Assembly: GCF_026571515.1 (NCBI RefSeq)
Contig: NW_026854607.1
Location: 1-64,000, forward strand
From: Ruditapes philippinarum
Lineage: Eukaryota
Length of the DNA stretch: 64,000 nucleotides
Direction of reading: 5' to 3'
Part shown: positions 22,501 to 60,555 of the stretch, piece by piece
Layout: every line of letters starts with the position of its first letter
Position numbering within the stretch: position 1 is the first letter of the stretch
The notes under the pieces: generated by a model
The model's input: only the letters and a program-made list of their open reading frames with translations
Database searches by the model: none
Told to the model about the DNA's origin: nothing
Made by a program: the position numbers and the translations under genes

Positions 22501-24082
22501 ATGTTACTTTATATATGGTTTAATCCGTCTTGGGCGCAGTCCTTGGCTCGTGTTTGTGATTAAAATATGATTATAGTTCTCCTATGCGATGGAAGTCTGG
22601 CTCTCTTTTTCTGTATTATTTTATTCACGTTGTTTTGAATGTTTTTAGGTTCTTCAACCATTTTACATAAATAAAAAATAAAGACTGCGTGAAAAAAAGC
22701 AAAATCGCAATTGACGACAATTATATTAACACAAGCCGGTGCTAGGGAGCGTGATAGATGTTACACTTTTTCATTATTCCTCATAATACATACTCATTCA
22801 AACCGAGTCTGCATTTTTCACGTATTTTTGCTGGATAGATCGCTTTTTTTCCAGATATTGGATGTAAATTATTACTTAAATATGTTAATATTACTCAAAC
22901 ATAGTTAAATAAGTTCAACACTGCGAATAATGTTTAGAATAGACCTTTGTTCTAGGTAGAACCATATTTCTCTTAACTTAATCATGATTTAATGTATCGT
23001 TCATTCAGCTGCTGCTTGTGTTACACATCTTTAAATATGAATAAAATGTGCCCTGTTACAAACTGACTTTTAATTTCTAAGACAAAATTTCTAATTCATA
23101 AGTCTTTTTTTAACCAATTTTTAACACAACAGAACCTCCTTTTTCATTAAAGAACTACTCGGCTTCCGTAGTTAAGATACGTTTTTTTAAAAAAATAAAA
23201 TTGAAATAAATACAGAAAGTGACGCAATATTCAAAAGACGCCATATTCATGTTGCGTCACTTGATTAATATATTACAACAGTTATCTTTAAATACTATAA
23301 TTTCATATTGTTATGTGAACATATTAGGAATTAATATATCAACGTATGAGATTATTAGCCTATATTTCAAAAACGGCGTTTATTGGTCCATAAAAATTAA
23401 TATGCCATAAAATTTTAACAAATAAAAGGATGTCTTATTTAGAAATTTCTGCCAATATGCATATGATTAACAATTATCTTTTATTACAATTATTTTTATA
23501 TATTAACGTTCATTGATTGGTCAACACACTGAAACCGGAATGCTTTCTGTTGAACCTTGGAACAATATAGATCTATTACTATTAGTAATGCTTCCTGAAA
23601 AAAAAAAAAAAAAAAAAAAACGCACCGGGAATTTACACTTAAATCCGCATAAATATGGGAGAAAATACTTTGGAAAACCACGTCGCTTAAAATAGCGTCC
23701 AATACACGGATTACCATGGTATTCTGACATGATCGGCTTATATATACATGTATATTTATACCTTTGCTGCGTTACCAAGCAGTTTTAACTGTTTCTTTGC
23801 GACATTAAGAGACGATTAAACGATATTTAAAATCGAATAAAAAATGTCTAACGTTGATCTAATCAATTAGCGTTATTTTGAAACGGGTACATGATTCAAC
23901 GACGCTACCGGATTTTGTAATTTTAAAGCGTGATAAAATTTCTAAATTTAGCCTATATAAATGAGGGGAAAAACTATAAATAGACATGAAATATATGGTT
24001 AATTTGTTCCGATAAAGTGACTACATTACTGTTTTTCATAACGATATAAAATAGAAACCACGAAGCATTAAATATTTACACC

Positions 24083-24116: not shown

Positions 24117-24195
24117 AAGCTGTGTTTCATTTACTGCGTCATAAAATCATCGGCTGGTCGATATAGTTTAGTGTTATTATATCGAAGCTGCTACG

Positions 24196-24249
24196 ATGGC
24201 GGATCGTGTTTTTATCGCAGATTACATAAAAAAGAAGCGACGTAGAAAG
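24196..24249 (+). CDS. CBX: CBX exon 1 (MADRVFIADYIKKKRRRK)
   Basis: ATG at 24196; donor AAG|GTAAAA at 24250; matches the chromodomain start (ERVFAAE.I.KKR.RK). Confidence 0.92.
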
Positions 24250-27200
24250 GTAAAAATTGTTTTATTCTTTTCATTAACCAAATATCTAACATTTGACTTA
24301 ATTTCAGCGGCTGACAATTTGTAAATTTTCAGATATTAGCGTTAATAAAATGCCGGTATGGCGACATTCGCCATTAAGCTTTGAACAGTGATACTGCTGT
24401 ATTCATGAAGGATAAGGTTCAATAAAAGTGCAGGGTTGTTTTGCTTCTTAACGAAAAAACATTTCCATGATATTGTTGTATCACGCAAAGCGATGTAGGA
24501 ATAATTTGCACATATATCTTCAGACATTAAATGTATATTTCACCACATCATGTAAATGGTATACATGCATGCATTGCTGATAAATGTGATTTTACGCGTT
24601 AATTTATCAGAGGCGGAAAGCCGGAAACTTAACATACGGTTACGTAAGCTTAGAGAAAGTGCAATATACATACAATGTCACTGTATAATCAGTTTCGTGC
24701 GGTTTCTATTTTGCCATATTTCATTTATTAAGTGTTGTCTTATTTTAGAAGTAGAATACATGGCATTCGTAGGAGTAAAATCACGTAGATCTATCAATCG
24801 TATTTAAAAATGAACTTATACAGTTAAATAAAAAAGATTCAAACTTATTAAGACCATACATTAAAATGTCTGTTGTTAATGGATTTTTTCTAAGATTTAT
24901 AATTATAACAATTGTTAAAAGACACCCCGATGCTTATAGATAGATGATAGCATCATTCTGCGATTTCGACCTGCACAAGAAAAATGATGTCATCTTTTGT
25001 AAAAGTGAAAATCAGAGTCAGTTACAGTGTCGGTTTAATATTCGTATTTATAAAACCATAAATTTTCCTCCCGGATATGTATGTTCTTGTCTATGCAGCT
25101 GTGCGGTTTTACATACAAATATTAAACCTTGTATACAGTATAATTGCTTAAATGTGTTTTACTGATCAATAATTTCCGCCATGTAATTTATATAACCTAG
25201 CGTTGCATTTGAACTGTTACACTACCACACGTGTACTTATTCGTACACTCACACAATAGGTGAAGATGACTAGATTTAATAGATAACGAATTTAAGTGTT
25301 TTGTTTCGATTCCGGTATCAGTGTTAACTTTAAACCACGCTGAAATAAGATGAGATAGAACTCGCTAGAACATGCACTGAGCGTAAAGGTTTCGTTTTTC
25401 GTTTCGGTTTAATTGAGAGAAAAAAAGAAGTAAGAAAACGTGGCGTTGGCGTGGTTTATATATTTACATGTAAAATACAGGTTTAAACGATGTATATTTG
25501 TACTTTTATATTCAGAATGACATGCTTGCATTCAGTATAATATTCGGTAAGCACTGTCACGCACTTATGTGCACCCATCAAGCACCCGTCTCTCTCCCCA
25601 TACCATATATAAGTAATTAAGTTAGGATAATAACTATTTTATACATGTACCATGCAAAAAGGTGAATATACACGCGGTTTCATTGTCGTATAAGGTAGAT
25701 CTACTAAATCTTACGTAGAAAACATGAGGACTTTATAAAGGAATGGTACAGAAAATACATGTATGATTTTGTAGTGGATGACTAACATAATTTTATTGAC
25801 CGTTAACTTTTATAGCATACATGTAACATATTGTGTTGGAGCATAGATATCACTATGTCCTTGACCTTTAAGAATTAATTGTATTTCTTTCTTTTTTTCA
25901 GGGAAATCTTGAATACTTGGTGAAATGGAAGGGATATCCAACACGGTAAAAATATCAAACATTTCTTTTTCCACAACGGTATCTCTTTCTTCAGTTTTAT
26001 ATCACCTGGTCATATAGCACTCTTGTGCCCCTCTGCGCATTTTTTCAGGCACGAGCGGGTACCTGCGTAGAGGTATAAACTTCCGGTAAACTCGATGCAT
26101 AGTTTCCTCCCTGAAATGATTCCAAAGCCTAAGTCAGGATTCAAACCTACAGACGGCTAAGGGGTCAAGTGATTCCAAGCCGGTGACCATAATGACCATA
26201 CCTCCGAGCCAATGGATCGCCACGCAGTTGTAGTTATAGCGCTCGTATGGGATGGGCGTTGGTCCTCGTAGCCAGATGTCAAATTAAGATATTATTTGTA
26301 TACGAAATGCTTATCGTTATGGTTTTAAGAAATGTGAAGGTAACAATTCTAAGTTAAAAAAAATGTTTTAAAATTCCGACAATATGGAAATTGGCGGATG
26401 AATAAGTGCTAAATATAAGATTATGAATATATCTTATTTCTTATATCCGCATTCGAGACTGAACATGAACTATTATAATAATTATCATCTTTTTGCTGAT
26501 GTATTGATTCAAGAAAAGGTGTCTTTAATTCTGTTCCTATATATAGTACACGTTCGATATTGCGAGAAATATGACATTTACACTACATATACTTGCGAAT
26601 ATGACATTTATCTATGGGATTAAACTATGACATCATACTTAAGATAATGTCAATACCTGGTCAAATGTTAATTATTATGTCTCCCCCACCTCGGGGGGAG
26701 ACATATTGTTTTTGCCCTGTCCGTCCGTCAGTCCGTCCGTCAGTCCGTCAGTCCGTCCGTCCATTCTTCGTTTCCGGACGATAACTAGAGTTCCTTTTGA
26801 CCTACAGCTCTCAAACTTCATAGGATGAATGGTCTTATTGAGCAGATGATCCCTATTGTTTTTGGGGTCAGTAGGTCAAAGGTCAAGGTCACAGTGACCG
26901 TTGGTCAATTTCTCGTTTCCGGATGATAACTAGAGTTCCTTTTGACCTACAGCCCTCAAACTTCATAGGATGATTGGTCTTATAGAGCTGATGATCCCTA
27001 TTGTTTTTGGGGTCAGTAGGTCAAAGGTCAAGGTCACACTGACCGTTGGTCAATTTCTCGTTTCCGGATGATAACTAGAGTTCCTTTAGACCTACAGACC
27101 TCAAACTTCATAGGATGATTGGTCTTATTGAGCAGATGATCCCTATTGTTTTTGGGGTCAGTAGTTCAAAGGTCAAGGTCACAGTGACCGTTGGTCAATT

Positions 27201-30200
27201 TCTCGTTTCCGGATGATAACTAGAGTTCCTTTTGACCTACAGCCCTCAAACTTCATAGGATGATTGGTCTTATAGAGCAGATGATCCCTATTGTTTTTGG
27301 GGTCAGTAGTTCAAAGGTCAAGGTCACAGTGACCGTTGGTCAATTTCTCGTTTCCGGATGATAACTAGAGTTCCTTTTGACCTACAGCCCTCAAACTTCA
27401 TAGGATGATTGGTCTTATAGAGCAGATGATCCCTATTGTTTTTGGGGTCAGTAGGTCAAAGGTCAAGGTCACAGTGACCGTTGGTCAATTTCTCATTTCC
27501 GGATGATAACTTGAGTTCCTTTTGACCTACAACCCTCAAACTGGGGGGAGACATATTGTTTTTGCCCTGTCCGTCCGTCAGTCCGTCCGTCCGTCAGTCC
27601 GTCCGTCCATTCTTCGTTTCCGGACGATAACTAGAGTTCCTTTTGACCTACAGCTCTCAAACTTCATAGGATGAATGGTCTTATTGAGCAGATGATCCCT
27701 ATTGTTTTTGGGGTCAGTAGTTCAAAGGTCAAAGTCACAGTGACCGTTGGTCAATTTCTCGTTTCCGGATGATAACTAGAGTTCCTTTTGACCTACAGCC
27801 CTCAAACTTCATAGGATGATTGGTCTTATAGAGCTGATGATCTCTGGATGTGGTGAATTTTTGTTTCAAGTATCTACCAGAGAGGCTTCATTGTGAAAAC
27901 GAGTGGAGTCATCCCAACACACTACAGTTATCATGATTTTACATACATTGTAATTTGAGTTGTCTTTCAATAGTGTAAAAAAATCTGACAATATGAACGT
28001 TTGTTTCAAGTATCATCAAAATCCTTTAAAGGTTTGAAGAATTATGGAGCAGACACAATTTCATTTAATTTCATTTGTGAAACTATATATGATATGACCA
28101 TCAAGTGCAATTTCGTTTGACGCCCGCCTGCCATACGCTGATTGAATAACCAGGATTTTCAAAATTGAATACCTGGTTAAAAACAAACAGTTTAGGAAGC
28201 ATCTTCTCATACAACCTTAACAATAGAAACCATCCATAGACAGCCTTCATTGAAGTGACTACCGGGTATTTACATTATCTTATCTCCATTTCCATTCCTG
28301 TTTCCATTCACAGTTATTCTCAGCAGTGGGGGAGACATGCGCTTTTTTACAAAAGCATCCTCTAGTTTGTTATGTATCGGGTGTATTATCCAAAATGTCA
28401 AAAATCGTGAATTTTATTCTGAAATAACAATACAACTGAGGATGTGGGCGATGGGAGGTTTCGGTAGTATTGCGCCACTCCCGTTTTGCCACCTTTTGTC
28501 TGTCTTCTTGTTTCGGTATTTGATCATGATTTATTGTTCTTTTGATAGAACTATGTGTGTAGTCGTTTGGGAGAAGTTCTAAAAACGGATTTGTAATTTT
28601 TATGATTAAGAATTTTGCTACTACGCGGGGGTGTTTAAGGGTTATTTTAAAAACGGAAAGAAGACATTACCGCATTTGGCAAGTTGTCAGAGCTTAACTT
28701 GTATCAATAATTGTGCTTTTTTAAAAAAACTATACAAAGTATATGTCATTTTTATCAGTTATTAATAATGAACGGTATTTGTTAATTAATATTTATTATT
28801 ATCTTAAAAAAACAACAACAATTTACGTTATTTGCGAAATGACCGCTGCGCGTTTTAATTTTGTCACAGAAAGTAGATCCATTACGTTTATTGTATTGAC
28901 AAGAAAATCACAGGCATTCGTCTGCTGTAGAATCTAGAAGAGTCTTTCGCTATATTTTAGAAAAGCAAATGATATCGGCAATCTTGTCTGTCTTTGTTAT
29001 TCAATAAATAAAGATATAGTCTACAAGCTAAATTTATAGATAGATTCTTGAACCGTCATTCATTAATTAGCAGATCAGTCTATACAGGAAAAGTTTGCAT
29101 GAGTCAACGATATATCTTCATGGAAGTGACTAATATCAATTTTAAAATGTGGGAAATATTAAGTATTATAATCGAACGAAAGGAAACAGTATCCTAGAAA
29201 GTTCTTACATATATTATGTTATTGTTTAATATCAATCAAAATATCGTACGATCATAAGATCTAGAAGTCTATAAATAGAAACAAATAGAAAAAGCGATAA
29301 TTTACATTGTAACGATTCCATTATTTGAGACGACATCTACGTACGTCACTTGGTCACATGACCACTTTTAAAGACAAATTAATATACAAAGTGTGTCATT
29401 GTTACAGTATACACTTCCCCACCGTTTATAAAAGAGGCGAAGTTGGAATTCAGTAAAACAACACTTAAGTACAGATTACAGAGTACGAATTGTTAATGTT
29501 ATGATGTTGGAAATGTGAAAAGAATATAAAAAATGCTGTCGTAAACTTGAACACTTCTAGATTTAATTAATATGCCATGATACGGGATTCCTCAAATTGT
29601 GGTTGTTTTCTAAAGTGCAAGTTGTTTCTAGTGCACGTTATCTGGTATCTAAAATCAATTATGGGTAAAATAACAGATGAACAAAGTAGAATGATCTCAG
29701 CGGAAACTGATAATAGAAATGTTCAACGTACGAAAGTTTTAAGTGACGAGTGATAAAATTATAATAAAGAAGAATTTTGAAGACAATGAATTTTAGATAC
29801 AATAGTCGTTTTCAGACCAAATTTTGAAGACAATGAAGTTTAGATACAATAGTCATTTTCAGACCAAAACTGTTCCGTGGAAACTCCCTTTTTATTTCGC
29901 CGCGTGACATGTTTAAGAGGGTTAAGGCATTCCATCTAGTGTGCCTTAATAATTTTTAGTAATATGCATGTATACTTTGCGTTAATTAAAAAAGTTAACT
30001 TTAAAGAATAACAACAAACTCAATTTTTTTCTTTTCTTTCAAATTGATTAAGCGCTTTTATCAACATAATGATTTATATGATGCGTGGTATATATTAAAG
30101 GCACACAAAGTGTTTTAGATATGAACTTTACTTTCTCCAAGAAGTACGATACATGTGTTGTAATAATGGATTTAGAATATGAAAGATGCCTATAACCTGA

Positions 30201-33200
30201 CGAATTATAGCGCTGAATGTGAAATAATTTAAGAAAAAGAAGTGGTATTTTGACTAACATACTAATTGCCCAAACGTGATAGAAGATTTTAAGTGCCAAT
30301 GAGTAACTTTTTTAAAACCGCAAACAGAAAAGTAAAAATATAAAACTTAAAAATATGAAAATATCTACATTTTCTAGGCTTACTGGGCCTTTAAAGTTGT
30401 GTCTCTGCGAAATATACGTCAGGAAATTTCTTGAGTGTTTTTTCTCGTGGAAAAAAACGTGAAACAACTTAAGATGTGACCTGTTTCTATAATAGAGTGT
30501 ATATTATCAGAAGAAAGTGGACATAGATTAAGATCTTTTACTGCGAAATTTGTATCGATCCACGATCTTTCCTTAGTTTTTGTGAACTTTAATTTAAAAA
30601 GTACAAAAAAAGTTAGAATATCGTGTGATTAAGGTGAAGTTACTTGGTCAAGTTACATCAGAAGAAAAGACGATTACTTGAAACATAATTATGTCGGTCT
30701 CAGATTCTATATGGAATACAAAATGTATATGATATTTGCTGGAAAAACTTTTTCGTATTTTTGTGTACTCGGCTCCCAATGGCTACGGGTAAACAATGAA
30801 CCTGCTTAGTTTCTTAAATTCGGACTTTACCTTGGAACTTACCATTGGATATCAAGATGATATGAGCCGCGTCACGACAAAACCAACATAATGGGTTTGC
30901 GTACAGCATGGATCCAGACCAGATGCGCATCCGCACAGTCTGGTCAGGATCCATGCTGTTCGCTATCAGTTGTAATAGGGTTTGTAAGCGAACAAAATGG
31001 GTCCTGATCAGACTGCGCGGATGCACTATATTGGTTTTGTCATGACGCGGCTCAAATATATACTTGATCAGCTATTAGTAATGAACCTGGTCAGGCTGAA
31101 TGGAGGTACAGACTGGCTTTGCATTATACTGGGTGACAAAGGCTATAAATACTTCCGGTTGCTGCAGGTCAAGTGTTAATAACCATGACGTTTTGAAGCA
31201 TAATAATTGTTAGCACTTGATGACTTTTCATTCTCTAAAAAAAACGAAGCAAAATTGTCTTCGTTCCTTCCTTGAATACACATGATTATGTGATATATAA
31301 GTAAATAAGTAATTGCAATATTTCGAATATTTGAACAAGTACTGTATAATTATACGAGCGGTCTTTTTTTGTTGTGTAATTATACTTATGTATTTATCTC
31401 ATTTTTAACAATGCTGGTATTATTTTTACCAGATCTTTTGAATTTCAAGTTACGTTAACGTGTACATTATCAACATCTTCAAATTATAGTTTCACGGATG
31501 TAGTTTAGATAATTAATGGACCTTCACTTCTTTATCAGTCTGATAACATTACGTTAAACGAATTTAAGTACACAATCATGCATTCGCACAAAATATTTTA
31601 GACAAAAAAGGGCATGGAAATTAACTCGCGTATTTTCTATAAAAAGTGCAAAATTCGTTTGTGCGCCAATGATTTTCTACACGAAAACGTGACAAGATAT
31701 TATTTAAAAAGCTTATCATAGCTTAAATATGTGCTGCATTTTTATACATGTACGTGGGATGGGAGGGCACGCTATCTGTCCGTGATCAATACAAATTAAC
31801 TATTCAAAAATCTGCATTTTACAATACTTATACTCTACAGATACATCGTACGATTTACTTGAAAACGTGCGTCGGTGAAACACGAGTGTTTAAATAATTA
31901 TGCCATTTCAAAATTGGTACAACACTGTGCCGATGACACATTTTTTTAAGTGAAATATAATTTAAAATGAAATTACGCAATGATTTACATTATATTAATC
32001 ATTTTTTTAACAGTCATAAAACGCCACTGATTACCGAGTTTAAGCGATTTATTGCGCTCCCGATAACAATGTTACGTAAGACCATTAATTAAGTAATACG
32101 AATTAATTAATGCGCGGCTTACGCGTGTTTGAGCTGAATTAAAAACGATTACGTAATGTATGCGTAAGGTGAAAATGCTAATTAACTATCAGAAATATTT
32201 ATTACCTGAGTTCGTTTTTTGTCGAACATACTGTGATATGATACTTTCACACAATCGCGCAACCTTCATGAATTCGCAAAACAATAAACTGCGTCATGGA
32301 ACAAAAATATTGATAATTTAAAAGCGCTTTGACATCGAAACTTAATAAAAAAAAATCGAATCGTCTCTCGCACTGTCTGGCATCTGGTCTCAACGAAATG
32401 AAAATATGAAAAAAAAGGATATAAATTTGTTTTTAATTCCTTAATTTAAATATACATGAGTATAAATTGTTTAGTAACAGATTTGCCGGTAGATAACTCG
32501 CGACCTTTTCAAACGCTTTCGCGAGCTCACACTGCTGTAACATGTTGCGTGCCCGTGCTTCAAATCGATTTCCACATTAAATATCCAATTAAAAAACCAG
32601 ATGTCGCGAATGGATGCAAATTTAATAACTCGTTAAATATGAGGATCAGGACAATCGCAGAAATGCCGTGGAATATTACATTCCTGTAGTCCATATGTCA
32701 GTCATTGCTTCTTTCTCTTTTGGTAGTAAATATTTTGGCGCCAAATTGTGTGGGACAACGACTTTGTTTGGAAAACAAAGAGACGTATGGAAACAAGGCT
32801 TTTTCTTTCTTTATTTGAGACCATTTAGTGACAAACGTCGATAATTAATTTTCAAGTTTACTATAAAATTGATAGTTTTTTTCTAGACGCGTTTTTCTAG
32901 CACGCGCTTTTAGTGTCCAATCGTGCGAATGCCTACTTTATTTTGAATGAAGATAAACGAGAAAAAGATAAAAGAAGCAAGGATTCGGCGCAATTAAAAG
33001 GACATACTACTTCATTATTGGGGAGTCCGTGCCCGTTTGATCAAACAACTTGCCTCTCACGGGTTCGACACGCGCAAGCGTCTTCGGATTCTGCCATGTG
33101 AGAAAGCTATCTAGCTAGCTTACGGAACGTCGGTGGTTCTACTCAGGTAGAAGTTCGAGCCTGAAGTAATGCACAGAAGTGCACCTGAGGTCTCCCTCCA

Positions 33201-36200
33201 CCAGTAAAAGACCTGAAAAGTCACCATATGACCTTTACAGTTTTGGTGCGACGTAAAACCCAACCCAAAATTAATTATTTAAAGGTGGTTACAACCTCTT
33301 AACACTGGTCAGCTTTTACACTTAAGCTGTGCATGACTATCTTAAAATAGATTTTATACAATTTATATTTCCCCTCCCTTGTTTTTCTTCGTCTTTTTTA
33401 CGCATGTTATGAATTGTTAAGGAAAAACAGTGTTGTTTACGAATCTTGTTACATATGAATTTGTCGATTGCTACGCACAACGGTTTCTATTTTGTACATG
33501 ACACGGACGCTCGGCATGATCGAGGAAATTACGGACTTTAGTAGACCTTTCAACTCGCCTTCAACTTTTACTCGCGGTAACACGTAATGGTAAACAACTA
33601 CCGGTATCACACGAATCTAGGTTTTTTTTTTCGAATAAGCGATAAACTTTCTCGCAATATTGATAAAGTGTCTTATATCTGTCAGACAAAGGTACATATA
33701 TTTTTATGTATATATGTGCATACTGTATTTCATAATTAATTGAGATCTATTGTGGTTGTTATTTATATAAGGTCAAATCGTGAAATTATTTCTGAGGACA
33801 TGTTTTGTAATATATTAAATATGGTTGAAAATAGGCTACATCGTTTTCAAGCAAGAAGTTGTTATATAAAACATCGGGGGGGGGGGGGGGGGGTCGTTGA
33901 AACATTACGAACTTTCTTATGCACGTGAACTTATCGAAAATACCCAATTCTCAAACGCGCGGGAATAAAAATAAAGTGAAGCGAGAGGGTTGGCGGCTGC
34001 ATTGTCTTTGTTTGATCCGTAACATTTTAAAAGGCGGGTAATAAAATTGATTATTTTGAAAGAATTCCACCACAAATCGTTATATCCGTGTTTGAGTTAA
34101 TGATTATTCGGATTAGTAGGCCGATTTTAATCTTAATATGTTTACGGGTAAACAATATGGATCCCTAGGGACGAGTCTGTTCATATTTTTTGTTAATTTG
34201 GTAATGTTAGTTTAGGTCAATGCGGACCGTATCTTTATTATATATGAATACCCTTTTGTTACACGTTTGTAACTTGTTATTGAAAACACCGTGATCGTAT
34301 TAGATAACGGGTCCGGGTTGAAACCTTAGACCAGCAAGATTACTATTTACGTACCGCTGACTTGTAAACAACCCTTAAAAGGTAAACAGGTGTATTGTAG
34401 TACGGCTAGAGCACTCTAATGTGTCCTATAGCTAATTCCACTATAGTTGTCGCGAAACTCGCATGTGCTGTTTTAACATACGTTGCATGGCCGTTTAGCA
34501 TTTTTCCTGTTCCATGGATTTTAAATTATTTCAGTGTTTGGAAGCTATCCAGGTAGCTGACGGAACGTCGGTGGTTCTACTCATGTCTAAAATAATGCAC
34601 GGATGGGGACCTGGGGTACCGTATGGCCACGTGACAATTTCGTGCAGCGTCGCTATGACTTAAACCCCAACAACAACAACGTTAACGTACTTGCAAAAAG
34701 AAGATTTTCAGCCATTCTCATTAAGCGAATATATTTTTATATTCATAACAGAGACCTTTAACATTTTATAGGGTTTTAATAAGGATAAAATATAAAATGG
34801 GAATTAATATGTATACATGCATTTTCATTCTAAAAGAACTGTGAAATTCATTTTAATCCGGTTATTGTTTTGGTGTTACATGTATTATGTTTTTGTATTA
34901 TTATTTCTCCCCTTTGGCATTTAAATAAACTCTTGTCGCAGTTGCCACATAAGTTGAAATTAACTACTTTTGCTTAATTTTCTTTTGCGTTTGTCTTACA
35001 TGTTTATTATGGTATGTTCCAAGGTATGAAATATTGCACGTACACTATTAAACAAGTCAACTTTATCCACGTAAATACCTAATGAGTTATCGCTAATGCG
35101 TTCGTGCGTAAACCAATAAAGCATGTTTCACGTATATATACTGTTTTAATCATTTTCTTTAACATTTAATGATAATAATGATACTTTATGCACGTAATTT
35201 TTTAAAGAAGTCGTTTATATTTCCACAGTGTTTATGTTTACGTGTAAACAGAGATGAAACAAGAAAATTGGCTTATGCTTGCATACGTTGCAAAAGATAA
35301 TGCAAAATTATGCTATAGATAATGCAACTTTATGCTATAGATAATGCAACATTATGCTTTAGATAATGCAACTTCATGCTATAGATAATGCAACATTATG
35401 CTATAGATAATGCAACATTATGCTTTAGATAATGCAACATTATGCTATAGATAATGCAACATTATGCTATAGATAATGCAACATTATGCTTTAGATAATG
35501 CAACATTATGCTATAGATAATGCAACATTATGCTATAGATAATGCAACTTCATGCTATATATAATGCAACATTATGCCGTTATGCCCTAGATAATGAATG
35601 CATCATAATGTTACAGACAATGCAACATTATACTGTAATAACACTTGTTATCTACTAGTGTTAATAAAGTCGTTGATGTTTACATTTCTGCAAGAAATAA
35701 TGCAATAATTCAACAGAATGCGTGTTTACTATAAAAGACTGTCGTTTATGTTTACATGCTAGAAATAATGCAACAGGGTGTTTATTTACTGTGAAAGAAA
35801 TCGAGTTTATTATCGCCTATAAATTACATGCCAAAATCAAACTGAATGCTAATTGTTTATTGTTATACGTATAGTATACAGTAGTACAATCTTTTACTAA
35901 AGGAAAAAAAAAACTTTATTGAAATGCTTTAATTATATCAGATTACTGTTTGTTTATTTGTTACATGTACGAGTATAACGCATATTAATTAAATGTAAAA
36001 AGAAAATCGTTTTATGTTTTACATTCTAGATATAATACAACAGGATATGCGTGTTAATTATTGATGGTTTATATTTTTTCAGACACTGCACTTGGGAACC
36101 TAGAGAAAACATACTTGATGCGTCCTTGATAAAACAGTTTGACGAGGAGTAAGTGCATTTCTATTCACTGATTTAGTTTGCTTGATAAGTATAACAAGGT

Positions 36201-39200
36201 CGAAAGTACTACTCAGTTGATGTTGAGACAGATAACCAACCGCCTTTTGTGCGCGCGATGATAATACATGTATGTACATGTACATCTGTGTATATCACCG
36301 GAAGCACGTGTGAGCGTCTCCCTCGGAAAAAACAACTTTGTAGTAATCTTACTTTTTTAGAGTATAAAAAAGTTTATAATATATATGAAGAACTATTAAA
36401 AGTGAGTTTCATTCCGAAACTTATTCCTAAGTTTAATTGAGGAAGCGTGGGGGGGTCAAACTTACGACCTCTGGAATTATAGCCAAACAGAGTTATCACT
36501 GGTCTGCTGCGCTCGCAATGATAATACAGTCAAGTAATTTGCCGTTCTTTTATACCTGAGCTGTTTTACGTCTGTTTTCTATTGTTGACAGTAGCCTGGA
36601 AAATATGTTTCTTTTATTTCTGTGACAAATTACTTAACTTTGAGCAACAGCAGAAATCATTTAACCGCCTTTGCATGTATTCTAGAGGAAAATTAAAGTT
36701 AAAATTAATCCCTGAAAGTCAATGCCATAATGAGTAGGTAGTGTCAATATTTCTGAAAGTCCGTGTTCTAAATTAAATTCTCAGCGTCGAAGAAACCTAG
36801 TTTTCTTATTTGACACGCTTAATTCAGAAAGTTGGAAACCGCCGATATTCAAAGGGTTACAGCGTCCATAAAAAATAATATGTCACAAGCTGGCTTATTC
36901 TGTATAATCAATTATATATATTTAATATATACGTTTCTAGAACTGTCTTTGAATGCGATAGCTGATTATCTTCTGCTCAGCACGCGCTGCATTCGTCTGC
37001 TTCTTTCTGCTTTTATCGGTAGATTACTCAATATCCGTTGTAGCGTTTAAATTCTTATGTATACCTAATTTAGAATAACATGTACATATATGAATAGTTG
37101 AATATTAAATTGGTATATAACCGCGACACGTCTCGCTTTTCGTTCAATACATAAAATTATATTATAAAACAATGGCAGAATTAAAAGGGTTTTACTCCCG
37201 TGTATGTGTTAGTATATGCAAACTTTAGTATGCGAGTACCTTGTAGTGCATGCACGAGGCGGGAAAAATAATTATGCTACATTTTTCATTTTCATAACTT
37301 AAATGTAAGCACTTGCTCAGAATTATTAGACGCTCATGGCTTGTGACTGCCCGTCGGTCTATGACAAAAATACCGGTAGACAGACAGACATACATACTCC
37401 CGACGAGCGCAGTGGTTTAGTGGTAACACTTTAAATCCAAGTGTCGTGAGTTCGATCCCCTGTCACTCCAACTACAATTACTAACGGATGTTAAAAACCG
37501 AGGTTTTCCGTATAGTGGGGATTTAAATCTTCATTAGGAATACCTAACCGATTGTTCTTATTCGAAATTTTACGGAAAGGGCCGAGAAGTTGCAACTTTC
37601 AGCCTTATATACTCAATTGCCTTGCACATGCTTAATCAATTGCTCTTAAACATAGAAACCTACCTATTGAAAACAATCTCAATGTATCATGTAGAAAGTG
37701 ACACATAGTTCTTGTCTTTAATTGTCTGAATACTTCTGAAAAGTGAATCTAATTGATCACCGTTTCGATCTGATTCGCCGACAGTCAGACATGATTCAGA
37801 CCTCACTGACTAATATAGGCCAGTGCTTAAATAATGCCAGTGAATAAAAGTGAGTAATGTATGTGACTAAGTGAAAAGCCTTGCCGACAGTCTGTACAAA
37901 ACATAAATATCATATTGATTTAAGAAACGATAATTTGTTTATTTTTGTATATTTCTAATTGTGATAATTATTTTCTCTGGTATTGATTTTTTTTGTTGAT
38001 ATTTCGGTGATTTTTATTAGGTTCTAGTTATATTAATGCTATTTATAAAAAAAAAACACGTTATATATTCACGATAAAAAGTACATGTTAATTAGGCTAT
38101 ATATAAATGTACTCGTAAACGTATATAGACAGACGTATTATTAACATGTTCACATAAATGTGCTATATTAAAAAAATGAGCCGCGTCACGACAAAACCAA
38201 CATAATGGGTTTGCGACCAGCATGGATCCAGACCGGCCTGCGCATCCGCGCAGTCTGATCAGGATCCATGCTGATCGCTTACAAACCCTATTACAAGTAA
38301 AGAAACTGATAGCGAACAGCATGGATCCTGATCAGACTGCGCAGATGCACAGGCTGGTCTGGATCCATGCTGGTCGCAAACGCATTATGTTGGTTTTGTC
38401 ATGACGCGGCTCATGTATTAAAAAACTACTTTCTCAAAAAATTATTATAGGTGACCTTTAAGTAAATGCTTACGTGGATCAGACAAATAGTTATGAAGCA
38501 GTAACGACCTTCTTGGGAGTGATTTATTGAGATATTTTAGCATTTGCTGTAATAAACACGTACGTCTATAAATGTACTATAGGGAAATATAATTGTATCG
38601 CAATAGCTTTTCTGTAAGCTCTGAAAAGGGTACTTTTTTTTTTCCGTAACTATCATAAATTATCACGATTCTTAAAGCTGGATTACTTATTTTCATGAAA
38701 ATTGTGAAGTTGTATTAAAAAGCGTCATTATTGTCAAGTTTACAAGGAAAGTAAACGGCTCTTTCGATCCACGTAAATTACAAAGTAAAAGCCAAACTAT
38801 GCAATAGCCTATATTGCGTTAGTCACGCAGTAGAAATATGGTGATATACATGTATACTTGAAAATCAGTCATTCATTGCATATAACATGTTTTTTCACCA
38901 CTTGAATTATGAATAATTTTACTTTTCTTTACATCTAAGTACATTTTTTCTTCAAAGTTGATTTTCTTGAAATTGTTTTACTAATCTGGAGGCATGAAGC
39001 TTTTATTTATATTTGGATTCATAACATCTGTAGTTTAGGACCCTCTCGTATTTATATCAAAATTTTGCTTTGTTTTTTTTTACAAGTGATAATTAGAAGC
39101 ATTAAACTATGACAGCACAATCAGTAGACACATTTTGTATTTAAATGTTTTTTTTTGTCATGATGGTTGTTTTAATATTTTGTTTTATTATTCATTTTCA

Positions 39201-42200
39201 ATTTTATTTCTTCACTTCTTGGTTCTTTTATTCCCCTTCATATGTATATTTTTTTTTGCTGAATCATCGTGAATACACATTATCGGTATATTAAATGTAT
39301 CATGTATTATATATGTAAACTCGTCGCCTACTTGAATGCTTGACAAAATATTTATAAATATCATCTGTGCAACCTTAGTTACATAAGTCCTATGAAATAA
39401 GATACTGCGCTTAATACATGTATCATGTATAATAATTATAATAATACTAATATCTCAGGCTATAGAGAAAATAACAGACTTTGATAATTAAAAAAAATAA
39501 TATGATCTTAGGTTATTAGCTTAGATTTCTTTTGTTAATAAAATTTTTTGTTGTCTTAAGATCTTACTTTTTTTAACGTTACTTGATGTATGTGTTTTCT
39601 TGATTGAAAACATTATAACGCTTCCACGTTAAAGTTTCTTTAAAGTTTGAAAGATTTAATATAGGTATTCACTCACACATACGCACGCACACACATGCAC
39701 TTTTTTAATTTTAACGCTTACAAGTGAATTTTAGGTTACTTTAATTTAGATTTGTTTCTACAACGCTTCAAGATACACTAGAGAAAGAAATCAAACCTAA
39801 CATCAAAATAGTACTTTAAATTGTTGGCATATACAATGTACTTTAAACAAAGCTTTTTTAGAACGTGTTCTTTTTTCTAGAACAATATTTCAACCTGTTT
39901 GCATACACCGAGAAATTTATAAAACACTAAACTCCCTTGAGTTGATAAATTGTCTTGTCCACATTTCACTTTGGAAAAAAACATATGAGCCGCTTCATGA
40001 CAAAACCAACATTGTGGGTTTGCAACCAGCATGGATCCAGACCAGCCTGCCGTCCGCGCAGTCTGATCAGGATCCATGCTGTTCGCTTACCAACTCTATT
40101 ACAAGTAGAGAAACTGATAGCGAACAGCATGGATCCTGATCAGACTGCGCGGCTGCGCAGGCTGGTCTGGATCCAGGCTGGTCGCAAACCCATTATGTTG
40201 GTTTTGTTGTGACGCGGCTCATATTATATATTTTTAATGAAAAAAAATGTACGGACTCAATAACGAACAATGCAGACCACGATACGTCGGCACGAATGTA
40301 CCGACTGAATTTGGTCTGCACTAGTCACAGGGGTAGAACAACAACAACAACTATTCTCAACGGATATAAATAAAATACTGAAAATGTCAGGCCTCTTATA
40401 TTTCGAAGACTTAGATTTTTCTCCAAGTTTCTTAGATATAATGTTACAATTTATCTTCCTATTACCCCTCTGTGAACTCCATAGTGAATCAACATGTTTA
40501 CCACAAATATTAACCGTGTTTTTCTATCAATGGAAACCAGGCTTCAAGGCCATCTATTGGCTCTTCAATATCATATCGATGCAAGGCGAAGCAGAGCCTT
40601 GCTGTTACAGTTCTTCTAGAACTGTTTACTTAGTGTTTTGTTTTTCCAATAAAACATGATCTACAGTTCGCCCTATTGAAATTGATCCTAATTTAACAGA
40701 GAAGAGATCTGAAAATCTAAATTAATTGTTGTTAAAGCAGCATGCCATCGAATCAATGCTAATTTTCCGGAAAATTTTGAAAAATTATTCAAAAGTAAAA
40801 TATTTTGAAGTGAACAACGAAAGTAATACATGTATCGACATTGCAAACAACGCTTACAATCCACGCAAATTACCAGAAGGAGACAAAATATGCAAAAAGT
40901 AGCCCTAACTGTATCAGTCACTTAGTAGAAATATTGTGATTAATAGTGCAAAATCAGTCATTAATCGCACAAAACATGTTAAGTTTTACTTGAGTCTTTT
41001 ACTTTTCTTAAAATCTTAGTACATTTTTCTTAAGTTTGATTTTCTTAAAATGTTTTTTGCTCATCTGGAGGCATGCAGCTTTAACTGGATTTTTATTTCT
41101 GTATATTTCATCTGTTAACTTAAGTGTTGTTAACAAGTCATCTTCAGTGTTTTTACTTCAGATTTGTTTTTTGCTTTAAATAATTATAGGTGAGCAATTA
41201 AACGTCTAAGCATCATTCGTGACTATTAAAGATGCCTCAATTTACCTTATTCTATAAACAATAATTGTAGCATAATTTAAGAGTAACTTTCCGCGGAATT
41301 ATTGCGCCGCGCGTGATGATGCGGTTATTTTATTAAGCATCATTGTCGAATGAATCATACCAGATGTTAAGAGTACATGACAATTGCACGATTGTTCCGG
41401 AAGTGCTTTGAGCGTTTCTTTTTTTCCAATTTAACAGTTGGGGTTATTTTCACTTGCCTTCTATCTCGATCAAGGTCGAAATTTCAAGAGGACGCGTTTT
41501 TCCTTTTAATATTCATCATTTTTTATAATTCTCAATGATATTCAATTTTTATATATTTTCCACTTTGTCAGTGGTGCTTTAGATGCCACATGAAACCTCA
41601 GACGACTTTTATCGGACGTAATCATTCTCGTCTGCTATGTTCTGACTTTCTTCTATTTCTCAATATAGATTTCATAACATTATTGGAAGGATTATATGGC
41701 AGGCATTTTCTGTGGCAGAAACAAATCGAAGAGGTGAATGTCTTTCGAAAAAAGCACGTAACTAACTTCTTGAACCGCGATAGAAATCATATACAAAAGT
41801 ACATATACCTGATAAAAGGGCGTTGCGTATAATCGTTCACCTTTTAGCTAGCTAGTTAATCCTAAATTGAATAATCCCATTATGTTATGATTCCCGAAAA
41901 TAAAACTTACACGTGAATTCATTTCAGTGCCGCGAATGCCAGTTACCACGCTAATTATATAGAATAAATATTGTTGTGGGCGCAACCCACAATTATGAAA
42001 ATGCGCCTCGGGAAATTACATTCAATGTTACTGTTCAGAAAATGTATGAAGCTCTATGTTCGGACAGTATCTCTGCTCATATTTTACTAGAAATATATAT
42101 ATGTTGTTAATTTTCTTGTCTTTTTCTTGTATTTCAGGGGCTATGATCCACGTAGGGTGAGGGCGGCCTGCCGGAAGAAGAAAAGGAGGCGAAGTGAGGT

Positions 42201-45200
42201 AACTACTCGAGACTAGGATTTATACTTTCATAGTTTTCATAACATTGTCCCAAATATTTAAACATATTAAAATAGAATGCAAGCTCACATGTAAGGATGG
42301 AGATATTTGCCGATTTTTCAGCGTTTTCTGGGGTTATCTTAATATCACGTGATATAAGGAATAATATATTCTTCATATAATACTTGTTTTATATCATGAG
42401 GTTATTATACATTGTTGAGTACAATAATGAATTGTATTGGGAGAGAACAGAAACCTATATTGGACGACGCGCTTGCCGAATCTTAAATGGGTTTACAGTT
42501 GTGTACAAGTCCAATACAATAAGTATTGTGCTCAACAGTGTATAATGACCTCTTTATTTCACACAAATACTTTCGAAGGGAAAATACATTAAAATAAAGA
42601 CAGCGGCGTGTTATATTTCATTAATCAAGTATGATATGGATTTGATATAGACATTTTGGACTCTGCAAATGAAAATGGAGCTATAAATGTGATATCTAAT
42701 TTTTGGACTCGAAAAATGAAGAACGAATCCGCCATCTACATTTTAATGGCACTTGAATTTTTCTTTTCTCAAAAAAACATGATACAAAAACTTATATTTT
42801 CGTAAAATATTCGTCTGCCATAAACAGCTGTTCATCAATTCGTTATGTTGCTATGTATTGGCTGATCACGTGTTGTCAAAAATAGTGACAGCATATATTC
42901 ATTTATCATTGATTTTTCTTAGTTTTTTTATTATAAAAATTGCAGTTCACTGCACTTTGCGTTGAATGACAGATGTTACAAATTCTTTGTTTTGTTTGTT
43001 TTTTTATCCATTATTAAACGTTGTGATGTCTCGAATTAGATCTATATATGGTGTAAATGGGTTCAATATGGCTATTAATCTTTCATTTAATTCAATTTAT
43101 TACCACATGTCCGACCTTTGCTTCAATTTTGTCAACATTCGGTGATTTAGTACTACCGAAATATATCTATTATTGTCAATTTTTTGTGCAATTAAAGTTA
43201 ATAACTTAATATATAATAAATGAATAGACCAGCGCATGCGCATCGTAATGTTTGAATATCATCTGTTCACATGTTATGTACATGTGTGTATTACTATGTT
43301 AGGCGTGGTTAGGTTGTAAAATCTTTGAGGGGAAGATTCAGTATGAGAATTTGATCTCCTGTCTCGTCATTTCGGTTAACTTAGACCGAATGCGAAGCTA
43401 AGATATACGTGATCAATCTTAGATGATTCAAGGAAAGTAATAAGATAAATTAAAAGAACATAATAATGTTATGATCATCTTAAAGAAGGGAATGAACAAA
43501 TAAAATAAGTAAATAAATAAATAAAGATGCTCATATTTACTTGAGTCATAGTTTGTTTAACTGAAGTTATCTCAGTGTTAATTCATAACTGTAGCATACT
43601 TATGTAAAATGTATGTAAGTATTTCATTTTTATTACTACATACGTAAATAAACTATGTCATGCATTTCACCACGCATTTATAATTTAAAAGCATTAATAC
43701 TTCTCCAGCAATGCATTTCGTCACGCAGTAGCTTTCTGCGCTCAATTTGAAATAAATGAAAAACACACAGGAAATGTACAAATATCTATGTACATTAATT
43801 AATACATGACTACGTTGAAAATTTGCCGTTGCCTGAAGGCTAAAGGGATTGGATCTCTTAAATTTTTACGAACACGTGACAGTGCCCCTTCAAGGTCATT
43901 AAAATGTATATGTGAATTTCTTAAAGTGACTCCACTTTTTAAAGATGACGGGGCTGAAATTATTAGTCCTAGATATGTGTACTATTTGATGTAGGTCAGT
44001 ACTAATAACTTATGAGCAAATTTTCAGATCATTTCCTCAATCTGTTTTGCCAGAACGATTACTTTTATTGTTCATGTAGAATGACCTAAAAATGAAAAGC
44101 GTTGCAACGGTATATTATAATCATGAATGATGTTCAGATCTAATGTTGTTAGCCAGTGTCTTTCCGAGAGTTCCCGTTTAAACAGACTCACATTCTTTCT
44201 TTTCTATTACAAATATGCAATTGTAATGTGAAAGTAAATTCGTAGATACAGACGATAAAATAACGAACTTAGTATTTCCTAGAGCTTTTCCATTAAATAA
44301 TAATACGCGGTATACTAATTCAGGACTAAGTACGAAAAGGTCAATTTCAAATTAAGTATTTTGTCGTCTGCTATAGGCAACTGATCCTATCCATGCGCCT
44401 AGTGTCGTCTAAGCATGGTCTGCACTGTTCACTATTCAATATCGTTTGAAAATTTCCCTAAAAAGTATAGTTTTCTCCATTTTGACAAATGGGCACTTCC
44501 ATTATCGTATTAAAGGTGGTAAGGGTTAAACAGTAATGAAATTGGGTCAAGTTTGTTTAAAAAATGGGCAAGTCAATTATCATATTTATATCTAAATCAA
44601 ACAGGAAGAATTTGCCAAATTTAGTGCAAGTATATTTACGTTATCGAATTAAATGAGATAAAACACCGTCAAGAGACTTTATTGGTTTTTAAACACTATT
44701 TTTTTTTCAAACAATAAACGAAGTTAACTTCCGTGATGCATTCCGTTTTGATATCGCTTTCATTTTTTGAATTTGAAATTTGAATGAATATTTTAACGGT
44801 TTCACATTTAAGGAAGTTATGTAGGTTTGAATTTAGAGGACGAGTTATAAAAGGAAGTTAAATATTTAAATTTCTGTGACCGCAAAATAAGTCGCCATCT
44901 ATTTTATGTGTTATACTCGTCAATATATATTACATGTTGACATGTACATGTGATCAGTTTATACCGGCCTTCAAATTTGAAAATTATGACAGCCGTGTAA
45001 TAAATGTTCGTTATAAATTACACACTTTGGTGTCATTAAAATGCTTGAAGTAAAAAAAATATAGGTTATGAATTTATAATCCCTTCATCGATTCGAATAA
45101 AGAATATTATTTATTAATGGTTATATTTATTTATTTTTTTCTCTATGATTTTTCAGATCACAGAGTCTAGGTCCCTTCCGCTCCCATTCTACGATTCTGA

Positions 45201-46059
45201 CAGTGAACACGAGCCCAGGACGCCACCCCATGATCTTTTAAGCAAACATAAAACCAAAGTGTCTCCGATTTCATTGTCAAAATTTGGCGGCGTGTGGCAA
45301 GCAGATGCCACGAGCGAGGAACGAGATACTTTGTTTGAAAACGAGGCGGATAAACGCACGGGACAAAAGAAACGGAAAATCGAGTTGGATATTATCGATA
45401 ATAAAGAAAATGAGGTCACCCTGCATAGTCCGAGACAAGAACAACTGAGCCCATTGTACGAAAATGGCGGGAAAAGCTGCCACCCAAAAATGCGAGCGAA
45501 GTACATGTTTCGCACCGGTGATTTTGAGAATACAGAATGGGGGTACGACTGGAGTAGCTCGGACAACGAGAGTTTAAAGGGGATTGTGCATATTGATAGT
45601 GAAAAAGCGCTTCAGTCAACAATGACTGTGACACAAAATAATCCCGAGAACCGGAAACGCCTGGATAGTTATTGTGAAATGTCTAGTAACGCTAGTGAAT
45701 CTACGATACCCGCAATTGATGAACTTGAAGTCCCCCCTCTGGTAATCGATCATGACTGGCAGGAGCCAGCCGGGTGTCCCTCTTTAGAAAACTCTTACTT
45801 CGAGGAAACCTTCTCTCCTATAAAGGAGGAAGACGAAAACATGCCCACACTAACAAACGAACACGCATACCCTGATCCTGAAAAATACAACCTGACGCAA
45901 CAACCGGAAATGGACCAATCTTACGAAAACGTTACACCGGAAGTAAACACTGACAAAGCGCGCGAGCACGTGTACGTTACGGAAGTAACATTAGATAACC
46001 TCACTGTGATTATCCATGAAAGTGATAAAATGAAAGGCTTCTTTAGATACCAGACGTAA
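24196..46059 (+). CDS. CBX: Polycomb-group chromobox protein (Pc/CBX2-4-6-7-8 family, canonical PRC1 subunit), 5 exons, 375 aa: join(24196..24249,25902..25945,36083..36148,42138..42198,45157..46059)
   Basis: Spliced translation: MADRVFIADYIKKKRRRK|GNLEYLVKWKGYPTR|HCTWEPRENILDASLIKQFDEE|GYDPRRVRAACRKKKRRRSE|ITESRSL...EHVYVTEVTLDNLTVIIHESDKMKGFFRYQT*. All four introns are GT..AG with pyrimidine tracts, phases 0/2/2/0 keep the frame, and 1128 nt = 376 codons. Chromodomain plus Pc box (compare CBX2 EHVFVTDVTANLITVTVKESPTSVGFF). Exon 2/3 sizes of 44/66 nt match vertebrate CBX gene structure as I recall it. Confidence 0.95.
25902..25945 (+). CDS. CBX: CBX exon 2 (GNLEYLVKWKGYPT-R), 44 nt
   Basis: Acceptor ctttttttcAG at 25900-25901; donor CG|GTAAAA; EYLVKWKG chromodomain core. 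Confidence 0.95.
26000..26222 (-). mobile_element. Decayed SINE of the 33040 family in CBX intron 2
   Basis: Reverse complement of the ctac.caggt.cccgctcgtgcctgaaa.aatgc.cagaggggcac core; B-box-like ggtttgaatcc. Confidence 0.55.
26672..28366 (+). mobile_element. Helentron-associated non-autonomous element (HINE/DINE-1/pearl-like) with a 145-bp satellite core, in CBX intron 2
   Basis: 5' subTIR ATGTCTCCCCC plus IR GGGGGAGACAT, (GTCC)n microsatellite, tandem core, 3' subTIR GGGGGAGACAT at 28328, terminal stem-loop GCTTTT..AAAAGC, TT flanks. Confidence 0.85.
26766..27845 (+). repeat. 145-bp tandem satellite (about 5.3 + 1.6 near-identical units)
   Basis: TTTCCGGA recurs at 26771, 26916, 27061, 27206, 27351 and 27496, then at 27617 and 27762. 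Confidence 0.95.
29773..29868 (+). repeat. 48-bp tandem duplication
   Basis: aattttgaagacaatgaa.tttagatacaatagtc.ttttcagaccaa occurs twice. Confidence 0.9.
30099..30390. mobile_element. Kolobok-like TTAA element, family K1
   Basis: TTAA|AGGCAC...GGGCCT|TTAA; internal similarity to 17833-18198. Confidence 0.65.
30864..31053. mobile_element. 235-bp palindromic MITE, internally deleted (190 bp)
   Basis: Both termini are intact; flanks ATAT/AAAT. Confidence 0.88.
33040..33270 (+). mobile_element. tRNA-derived mollusc-type SINE (other copies at 34505-34680 +, 62686-62875 -, 26000-26222 -)
   Basis: B box GGTTCGACAC; shared core gaagctatc.ag.tagct.acggaacgtcggtggttctactca..aataatgcac..; 3' cgacgtaaaacccaa. 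Confidence 0.75.
34505..34680 (+). mobile_element. SINE fragment, 33040 family, with (AAC)n tail
   Basis: ggaagctatccaggtagctgacggaacgtcggtggttctactca core. Confidence 0.7.
35296..35630 (+). repeat. 22-bp minisatellite (GATAATGCAACATTATGCTATA), about 14 copies
   Basis: Exact 22-nt periodicity; each unit contains the hairpin ATAATG-CAA-CATTAT. Confidence 0.95.
36083..36148 (+). CDS. CBX: CBX exon 3 (R-HCTWEPRENILDASLIKQFDE-E), 66 nt
   Basis: Acceptor ttttttcAG; donor GA|GTAAGT; TWEPxENIL motif. Confidence 0.95.
37402..37510 (+). mobile_element. tRNA-derived SINE head (same family as 55432)
   Basis: tggtttagtggtaacact..gtcgtgagttcgatcccc..actcca. Confidence 0.65.
38178..38412. mobile_element. 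235-bp palindromic MITE (Sola-like), full copy in CBX intron 3
   Basis: GAGCCGCG...CGCGGCTC, 235 bp; loop in reverse orientation. Confidence 0.92.
38676..39001. mobile_element. Kolobok-like TTAA element, family K2
   Basis: TTAA|AGCTG...ATCTGGAGGCATGAAGCT; internal match to 14665 and 40736. Confidence 0.65.
39987..40220. mobile_element. 235-bp palindromic MITE (Sola-like), full copy with ATAT TSD
   Basis: ATAT|GAGCC...GGCTC|ATAT. Confidence 0.92.
40736..41080. mobile_element. Kolobok-like TTAA element, family K2 (345 bp)
   Basis: TTAA|AGCAGCATGCC...GGCATGCAGCT|TTAA. Confidence 0.75.
42138..42198 (+). CDS. CBX: CBX exon 4 (E-GYDPRRVRAACRKKKRRRSE), basic/NLS exon, 61 nt
   Basis: Acceptor ttgtatttcAG; donor GAG|GTAACT; GC-rich island in an AT-rich intron; bridges phase 2 to phase 0 as required; sits where CBX genes have their basic AT-hook exon. 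Confidence 0.85.
42398..42552. mobile_element. Small palindromic MITE in CBX intron 4
   Basis: gaggttattatacattgttgagtacaata..ttgtattgg is inverted against ccaatacaataagtattgtgctcaacagtgtataatgacctc. Confidence 0.7.
45157..46059 (+). CDS. CBX: CBX exon 5 (acidic linker, KKRK NLS-like motif, C-terminal Pc box)
   Basis: Longest ORF in the window (45145..46059); acceptor tttttcAG at 45155-45156; ends in a Pc box; TAA at 46057-46059. Confidence 0.95.
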   Translation: MTESRSLPLPFYDSDSEHEPRTPPHDLLSKHKTKVSPISLSKFGGVWQADATSEERDTLFENEADKRTGQKKRKIELDIIDNKENEVTLHSPRQEQLSPLYENGGKSCHPKMRAKYMFRTGDFENTEWGYDWSSSDNESLKGIVHIDSEKALQSTMTVTQNNPENRKRLDSYCEMSSNASESTIPAIDELEVPPLVIDHDWQEPAGCPSLENSYFEETFSPIKEEDENMPTLTNEHAYPDPEKYNLTQQPEMDQSYENVTPEVNTDKAREHVYVTEVTLDNLTVIIHESDKMKGFFRYQT

Positions 46060-59745: not shown

Positions 59746-60555
59746 TATATCATATTTGAGCAAAGTATATCTTTAAATTGTATAAGTTCTTGATCAAACC
59801 ATCTATCCAAGTACAAATTTGATTAATTGATTGAAACAAAAGCGATAGAAATTATGTGTATAATAACAGCCAGTGGTCTTTTTTTTTGTAGGAAGGCATC
59901 CCAGTAGTGAATGGGTTTCCGAGAAGAGGTTCTCTTACTTCTTCAAAGCGTAAGTAAAAAAATAACTCCAAATCAAATGACCACGTACTGTGGAGACAAC
60001 AAAATAATAATGTTTTTATAATGTTTTTATCAATAAAAGAAAATGTAAATGAATAGACAGGTTTTAATCTTATATTGAGGCTAAATCAGTAGTTTTATTT
60101 ATCCAAAGAAAATGCCTTAATTATTCACTTTGGCTAATGTTTCAGCAAGCCTTCTTCCTCGTCGCCGATCGGAGGTCACTTTACACGAAATACAGGAAGT
60201 GCGAAAGATTGAGGAAACTAAGAAATCAGTGCTCCGTCGGCAATTCTCAACAATATGCGCACCAAAACTTGTCTCGGAACGTCAAAATATCGGGAAAACA
60301 GTTACAAAAACTGACACTTGCAAAAAAGACGACGACCTTGAATTGCCCAGAATTCCCTCAGTGACACCGGAACCGGAAGAGATCAAATTCGCCAAACAAA
60401 GAAGAAACAGCGAAAGTATTAAGGAAGAACTGCAAAACGGTTCATATCGACCAAAACATTGCTGGTGTTTTCGTTGTCAACTGATGTTCTCAATGTTTAA
60501 AGCAGGGGATGATAGGCTAGAAATGTGGGGGAACTATCCTTGTTTCAGAAGGTAA
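58754..60555 (+). CDS. Uncharacterised 184-aa protein, 4 coding exons: join(58754..58807,58861..58893,59892..59949,60146..60555)
   Basis: aaaATG with an upstream in-frame TAA. Donors GTAAGT, GTTAGT, GTAAGT; acceptors tttatttcAG, tttttgtAG, ctaatgtttcAG. Phases 0/0/1 are consistent and 555 nt = 185 codons. Translation: MNDNILSRRKSCDAGEKL|ATLKTCALDLV|EGIPVVNGFPRRGSLTSSKP|SLLPRRRSEVTLHE...HCWCFRCQLMFSMFKAGDDRLEMWGNYPCFRR*. AATAAA at ~60710. The last two exons are the best supported; the first intron is only 53 nt. Confidence 0.72.
58975..59129 (-). mobile_element. Decayed SINE (19380 family) in intron 2 of the uncharacterised gene
   Basis: caagttcttg..cgagtagggctcgagccc..ctgggt..gagacagatac.ataac..ctccc aligns with 19420-19573. 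Confidence 0.6.

Follow-up and report, generated by a model that had tools for sequence, protein, structure and literature searches.

The window analysed here, a 64,000-nt stretch of genomic DNA from the clam Ruditapes philippinarum, contains a gene whose five exons, separated by four GT-AG introns, join into one open frame of 375 aa. Judged from its sequence, the product is a member of an old second clade of Pc/CBX proteins, here called clade B, that originated at least before the Mollusca and perhaps includes echinoderm members.

Gene structure and expression

The gene and its coding elements are arranged as follows:

24142-24195, + strand: 5´ untranslated leader, from RNA 5´ ends in run X24
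24196-24249, + strand: coding part of exon 1, 54 nt, aa 1-18; clasp V5, cage F6, groove I7 (Ala12 in CBX7)
25902-25945, + strand: exon 2, 44 nt, aa 19-33; cage W27 (25926-25928) and Y30 (25935-25937; Trp35 in CBX7)
36083-36148, + strand: exon 3, 66 nt, aa 33-55; clasp L44, D45, S47 (Arg52 in CBX7), chromodomain helix
42138-42198, + strand: exon 4, 61 nt, aa 55-75; basic tract
45157-46059, + strand: coding part of exon 5, 903 nt, aa 76-375; acidic, predicted disordered linker and Pc box
45460-45573, + strand: conserved unannotated motif, aa 177-214
45970-46047, + strand: Pc box core, aa 347-372; retains the beta-hairpin pattern and the GFF loop, with changes at the upstream Trp and the equivalent of CBX7 R142

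The introns measure 1652, 10137, 5989 and 2958 nt. The three small chromodomain exons (54/44/66 nt) and the two long introns that separate them are as originally predicted, and so are residues V5, F6, W27, Y30 and L44. In a six-frame scan, the chromodomain appears as pieces at 25914-25940 and 36084-36128, and exon 5 as a single long frame at 45118-46059. The gene had been described as hidden, but is already annotated, its product being identical to the NCBI model P0001, ‘chromobox protein homolog 8-like [Ruditapes philippinarum]’.

The RNA evidence comes from seven of the 24 listed runs (X1, X6, X7, X11, X21, X23 and X24), of which X6 consists of contigs whose RNA nature is a guess. The predicted junctions of all four introns are present in these data: one X6 contig spans junctions 1-3, and a loose end at 42198 reads into the start of exon 5 (junction 4). 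Junction 1 is also crossed by 148 raw RNA reads in X24, where 151 reads continue into exon 3 and the transcript 5´ ends cluster at ~24142-24144. No other letters are listed over exons 1-2 in the X24 reads, and the Tyr codon is thus no assembly error. Junction-1 reads number 148 in X24 (1658 M letters), one in X23 (1105 M, same study) and none in X21 (1934 M), which implies an approximately hundredfold difference in expression between these samples, unlabelled for tissue. Nothing from X1 was placed on the gene and no junction was found in X11. The gene is expressed in some samples only.

At 25943-25944, two letters stand in swapped order in transcripts from X6, X7 and X24 compared to the assembly, and an X23 read has the same shifted joint. 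The swap is synonymous (both versions encode Thr-Arg), moves the mapped joint by three bases, and represents either an allele or an assembly error. A non-canonical splice from 25942 to 36080 was rejected in favour of such a two-letter difference under an ordinary GT-AG intron. As a separate observation, a single X7 contig at 24160 carries an exon-4-like piece of 28 letters ahead of the 5´ leader, possibly a circular or template-switch product.

Intron 3 holds two copies (38170-38415 and 39990-40220) of a MITE-like repeat, small, palindromic and of very high copy number, and these draw thousands of reads. Tandem arrays with units of 145, 22 and 165 nt (26768-27542, 35295-35577 and 46893-47680, respectively) lie in introns and downstream of the gene. 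An open frame of 144 aa at 60121-60555 on the + strand, with a weak Pfam GKAP match below the cut-off (E 0.003), is probably an exon of the next gene.

Canonical Pc and PRC1 partner genes in the same genome

A canonical Pc gene is found on contig C14699 (assembly G000). The two genes have the 44- and 66-nt chromodomain exons and the intron positions in common. Unlike the window gene, the canonical gene encodes the W cage (KWKGW), LDKRL, Arg52, AT-hook-like and AT-hook motifs, and a Pfam-grade, Trp-led Pc box. The window gene is thus not the sole Pc-box gene, and its designation as a CBX paralogue is borne out. A recent duplication and a second haplotype were both rejected; in the AU test, a sister relationship between the window gene and the clam Pc has p=0.0009. 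No third Pc-class gene was seen in exon-2 pattern and Pc-box searches of the genome, and two is a lower bound, as the searches are insensitive and Pfam CBX7_C missed the window gene itself. The exon-2 pattern gave eight matches, comprising the two real genes and six that do not read as chromodomain exons, and five matches in the control. A weak Pc-box match on C14745 contains three stops and was dismissed as looking like chance.

The genome further contains a RING1 gene, with the RAWUL domain split over several exons, and an RYBP-type motif on two contigs (E 2e-15). The latter matches (C5019:21381-21479 and C6933:93440-93538) score equal and are probably on duplicate haplotype contigs. In variant PRC1, a beta-hairpin of RYBP/YAF2 binds the same RING1 site as the Pc box (PMC10638273), and the window protein differs from these proteins in having a chromodomain in place of the zinc finger. 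The idea that it replaces RYBP was rejected because the genome has its own RYBP-type matches.

A Pc-type chromodomain with a changed groove

The window protein is organized like Drosophila Pc and vertebrate CBX2/4/6/7/8, with an N-terminal chromodomain with clasp, a disordered linker and a C-terminal Pc box. It differs from them in W35 to Y, A12 to I and R52 to S (CBX7 numbering, offset +5), in changed Pc-box Trp and Arg142, in an acidic linker, and in being devoid of an RGP-type AT-hook or AT-hook-like motif. The chromodomain, which is the only confident part of the AlphaFold model, has a Pfam Chromo match of 60 bits. The 19 best PDB sequence matches are all CBX2/4/6/7/8 or Pc (best CBX7, E 3e-17), CBX7 ranks first in Foldseek, and HP1 matches rank below every CBX/Pc entry. 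The Pc-type hydrophobic clasp (V10 and L49 in CBX7) is kept as V5 and L44, as predicted, and D50 as D45. The cage is F/W/Y rather than F/Y-W-W, and I7 and S47 in the groove replace A12 and R52.

These positions were counted in 49 clade-B proteins and 123 others, all having a single chromodomain and a tail resembling the Pc box; the rows are related and not independent. A12 is kept in none of the clade-B proteins and 111/123 others, R52 in none and 120/123, and W35 in 11/49 and 118/123, contrasts that are partly circular because the columns counted here had already served to delimit clade B. The R52 position is occupied by 11 different residues across the 49 clade-B rows. The W-to-Y change, on which the original prediction dwelt, is on these sequences the weaker signal, and the losses of A12 and R52 are the stronger and probably more important; the prediction missed these more consistent changes along with those of the Pc-box Trp and Arg.

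The W-to-Y change is nonetheless real and is not common to mollusc canonical Pc orthologues, as those named in the tree keep the W cage. Within clade B, Tyr at the third cage position marks bivalves and gastropods, Trp is found in the chiton, octopus-type and nemertean members, and Cys or Phe in the echinoderms. Four echinoderm proteins with Cys (P0097, P0131, P0271 and P0291) are left with two aromatics only and may not read methyl-lysine. Outside the clade, Tyr is seen in two mite Pc proteins and in a Nematostella CBX that keeps Arg52 (PMC10638273 supplement 9); as judged from sequence, it arose separately in mite and Nematostella Pc. Two other features had been singled out as unusual without being so: the H of HCTW is present in 57/124 comparison proteins, and the DA of LDASL has its counterpart in human CBX8, which reads ENILDARL.

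K9/K27 selectivity has been ascribed to polar fingers versus clasp and to surface charge, with acidic fingers for K9; mammalian CBX domains already bind weakly and unselectively (Kaustov et al., PMC3013012). The acidic polar fingers and electronegative groove of HP1 are absent from the window protein (V5/L44), the net charge of which is +4 (+3 to +7 in the six canonical chromodomains compared), and no chromo-shadow domain was matched by Pfam at E<=1. HP1 (CBX1/3/5) further differs in that the window protein has a Pc box. The cage is thus HP1-like, as originally described, with respect to one residue, Y, and the resulting KWKGYP text is found in venerid and mactrid clams; the same Y occurs in mite and Nematostella, and fingers and charge are Pc-type. 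The absence of acidic fingers and the recurrence of Y make reading of H3K9me unlikely.

Chromodomain specificity derives from surfaces beyond the cage (review PMC13068663). The H3 groove is formed by V10, A12, L49, D50 and R52, of which D50 and R52 make hydrogen bonds to the backbone of H3; binding is abolished by R52-to-Asp (bioRxiv 10.1101/2024.10.02.616304). A cnidarian CBX with Ser at position 52 is described in the same source, where polar residues are considered possibly tolerated, and R52-to-Ser is milder than the tested R52-to-Asp. Because specificity lies beyond the cage and D50 and R52 bond to H3, the groove changes outweigh the cage change and point to weaker reading of K27.

Pc box, basic tract and linker

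The Pc box (aa 341-372) aligns to CBX7 216-246 and scores 29.6 bits against a profile of the 123 canonical boxes, the best of 500 shuffles scoring 6.0. It is not reported by Pfam CBX7_C even at E<=1, and the Pc box alone is unfolded in the AlphaFold model. In short-form CBX7 numbering, W118 and R142 have become V338 and H362, whereas the V127 and D131 positions are kept as V347 and E351. In the same partly circular comparison, the upstream Trp is found in 9/49 clade-B proteins versus 119/123 others and Arg/Lys142 in 4/49 versus 114/123; within the clade, the V127 position holds an aliphatic residue in 49/49 and the D131 position D or E in 42/49. Several members have Tyr-Pro at the Trp site; the clam has neither.

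The hairpin and loop bind RING1B (PMC5310723). In a cryo-EM structure of cPRC1, W118, V127 and R142 of CBX7 contact BMI1, and D131 joins a PHC2 network (PMC13672072). The CBX7-BMI1 interface is of limited local resolution in that structure, and the CBX-PHC contacts are largely backbone (PMC13672072), such that clade B could keep them. The Pc box had been called well preserved, and this applies to the core hairpin and GFF loop, but not to the upstream Trp, which is gone, or to recognition by Pfam. The accompanying claim that the protein can still enter canonical PRC1 is in doubt with Trp and Arg changed. With the hairpin kept and the BMI1-contacting Trp and Arg altered, RING1 binding seems likely and full canonical assembly doubtful.

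Where other Pc proteins have the AT-hook-like motif, exon 4 encodes a basic tract (net +8 over aa 56-75) that lacks the RGP core, and no RGRP/RGPK pattern occurs in the window protein. An AT-hook or AT-hook-like motif next to the chromodomain is a feature defined for vertebrate CBX and is also seen in the clam canonical Pc; the AT-hook-like motif is present in 0/48 clade-B proteins versus 67/124 others. In CBX7, this motif and the chromodomain form a DNA-binding unit by way of basic residues (PMC5056789). The linker is acidic (net -25 over aa 76-345) and predicted to be disordered. It contains a motif (aa 177-214) that is conserved among heterodont bivalves and to a lesser degree in unionids (82% in Mactra, 79% in Dreissena and 39% in Sinanodonta) and not recognisable in scallop, oyster or snails. 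The motif has no Pfam match, and an Atlas search returned nothing usable. Over aa 1-80, identity is 100% with Mercenaria and 94% with Mactra, and this part of the protein appears to be under strong constraint.

Phylogeny

Proteins of the same type are found in venerid, mactrid, dreissenid and unionid clams, Solemya, scallops, oyster, ark clam and mussel, as well as in at least seven gastropod genera, a chiton, an octopus, two nemerteans and five echinoderm genera. Both clade-B and canonical proteins were named in Solemya, Tegillarca, Haliotis, Aplysia and Tubulanus. In all of them except Aplysia, the two copies are on a contig of equal size, and in Tubulanus the locus numbers differ by four, which suggests an old tandem linkage. 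Four starfish CBX proteins with close gene numbers (022779-022812; supplement 9 of PMC10638273) likewise hint at a tandem CBX cluster.

The careful tree was built from the chromodomain and Pc box of 42 proteins (86 columns; 20 clade-B rows and 22 canonical and vertebrate rows), after removal of three long-branched and further redundant rows from a 76-row set. Clade B is split from canonical and vertebrate CBX with a support of 97/94; in the quick 76-row tree, which includes the three long branches, the support is only 51. Some rows are unnamed, and the labels CBX2-like, CBX7-like and insect Pc on these were assigned here from their motifs. The window gene is not placed with vertebrate CBX8, and ‘CBX8-like’ is thus an annotation label only. 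The AU test rejects duplication within Mollusca (p=0.008), and the paralogue is therefore older than Mollusca and not lineage-specific as originally thought. A duplication within Spiralia is compatible with the test (p=0.27), and a test without echinoderms does not discriminate (p=0.44). In the tree, the echinoderm rows fall among those of the bivalves, a placement that has to be artefactual, and bilaterian age is therefore not established.

Discussion

Our search of the openly accessible literature returned no description of a clade-B CBX subfamily. The genes are on record under various NCBI names, and three of the proteins, P0037 (Aplysia), P0265 (Biomphalaria) and P0292 (Acanthaster), are named ‘M-phase phosphoprotein 8’ despite a C-terminal Pc box. 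Invertebrates are said to ‘have one PC gene’ (PMC2784810). From 1 to 8 CBX genes per animal are reported in a study that built trees for PCGF (Gahan et al., bioRxiv 2020.03.18.997064). Two oyster and four starfish CBX proteins, B-type included, are in the hit table of PMC10638273, and according to its peer-review file, CBX trees were attempted without success. A ‘CBX8’ is female-biased in Tegillarca gonads (PMC5608214); this species has both paralogues and the report is not counted as support.

We give an even chance to the reading that the window gene encodes a RING1-binding CBX with relaxed reading of H3K27me3 and loose coupling to Psc and Ph, made in a restricted context. According to this model, built from sequence comparison, the kept hairpin and GFF loop would pair with the RAWUL domain of RING1 in competition with canonical Pc and RYBP, and the Psc/Ph lobe would be loosened because the Trp and Arg in contact with BMI1 in human cPRC1 are missing. 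An ARKS-type peptide could still have its trimethyl-lysine held by the F/W/Y cage, but a groove lacking R52 and A12 would no longer grip H3 residues 20-24, and the preference for K27 would fall. The basic tract following the chromodomain may add DNA or RNA binding, and the variant complex would be made in a restricted tissue or stage.

The protein could also be an ordinary second canonical Pc that enters canonical PRC1, reads H3K27me3 like its paralogue and differs mainly in its site of expression. The best structural and sequence matches (CBX7/8/6/2), the clasp, D45, a cage of three aromatics, the hairpin, and a net charge like that of other Pc chromodomains are all consistent with this, yet we find it doubtful in view of A12, R52, the Pc-box Trp and R142, which hardly vary among the 123 canonical proteins but are missing or rare in the 49 of clade B, and of the AT-hook-like motif that the clade lacks. 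An unlikely possibility is that the protein is a specialised reader tying RING1 to a different methyl-lysine, which could be in a histone variant or at an ARKS-like site outside the histones. Binding to methylated peptides of non-histone origin is on record for human Pc-class domains (Kaustov et al., PMC3013012), and the tight conservation of the changed groove among bivalves (in Mactra, Dreissena and Sinanodonta, 79-92% over aa 3-55) fits a new ligand better than decay; the variety of residues at the R52 position, on the other hand, looks like loss rather than a new contact. The HP1-like case of the original prediction would make the protein a reader of H3K9me2/3 that brings PRC1 to constitutive heterochromatin. 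The Y of fly HP1 is indeed at the third cage position, and lost K27-side groove contacts would narrow the advantage of K27. We nevertheless consider such a reader very improbable, as the surface is basic and the acidic fingers associated with K9 (Kaustov et al., PMC3013012) are missing, as the chiton, octopus-type, nemertean and echinoderm members do not have the Y, which mite and Nematostella Pc acquired separately, and as HP1 ranks below all CBX/Pc matches.

In conclusion, we prefer to see in the window gene a CBX that would bind RING1, read H3K27me3 in a relaxed manner and couple loosely to Psc and Ph. The diversification of CBX genes is generally regarded as having taken place in vertebrates. 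A far-reaching scenario, which we regard as quite unlikely, is that the bilaterian ancestor had two linked CBX genes, one of which gave rise to clade B; flies and vertebrates would have lost this clade, whereas molluscs, nemerteans and echinoderms retained it. Clade B would then define a third class of PRC1, in which RING1 carries a chromodomain subunit that is coupled neither to Psc/Ph nor to H3K27me3 and acts in the embryo or germ line. A second CBX clade of old origin, in which residues of the H3 groove and of the BMI1 contact have changed together, would amount to a natural experiment on the defining features of canonical PRC1 and on its dependence on H3K27me3.
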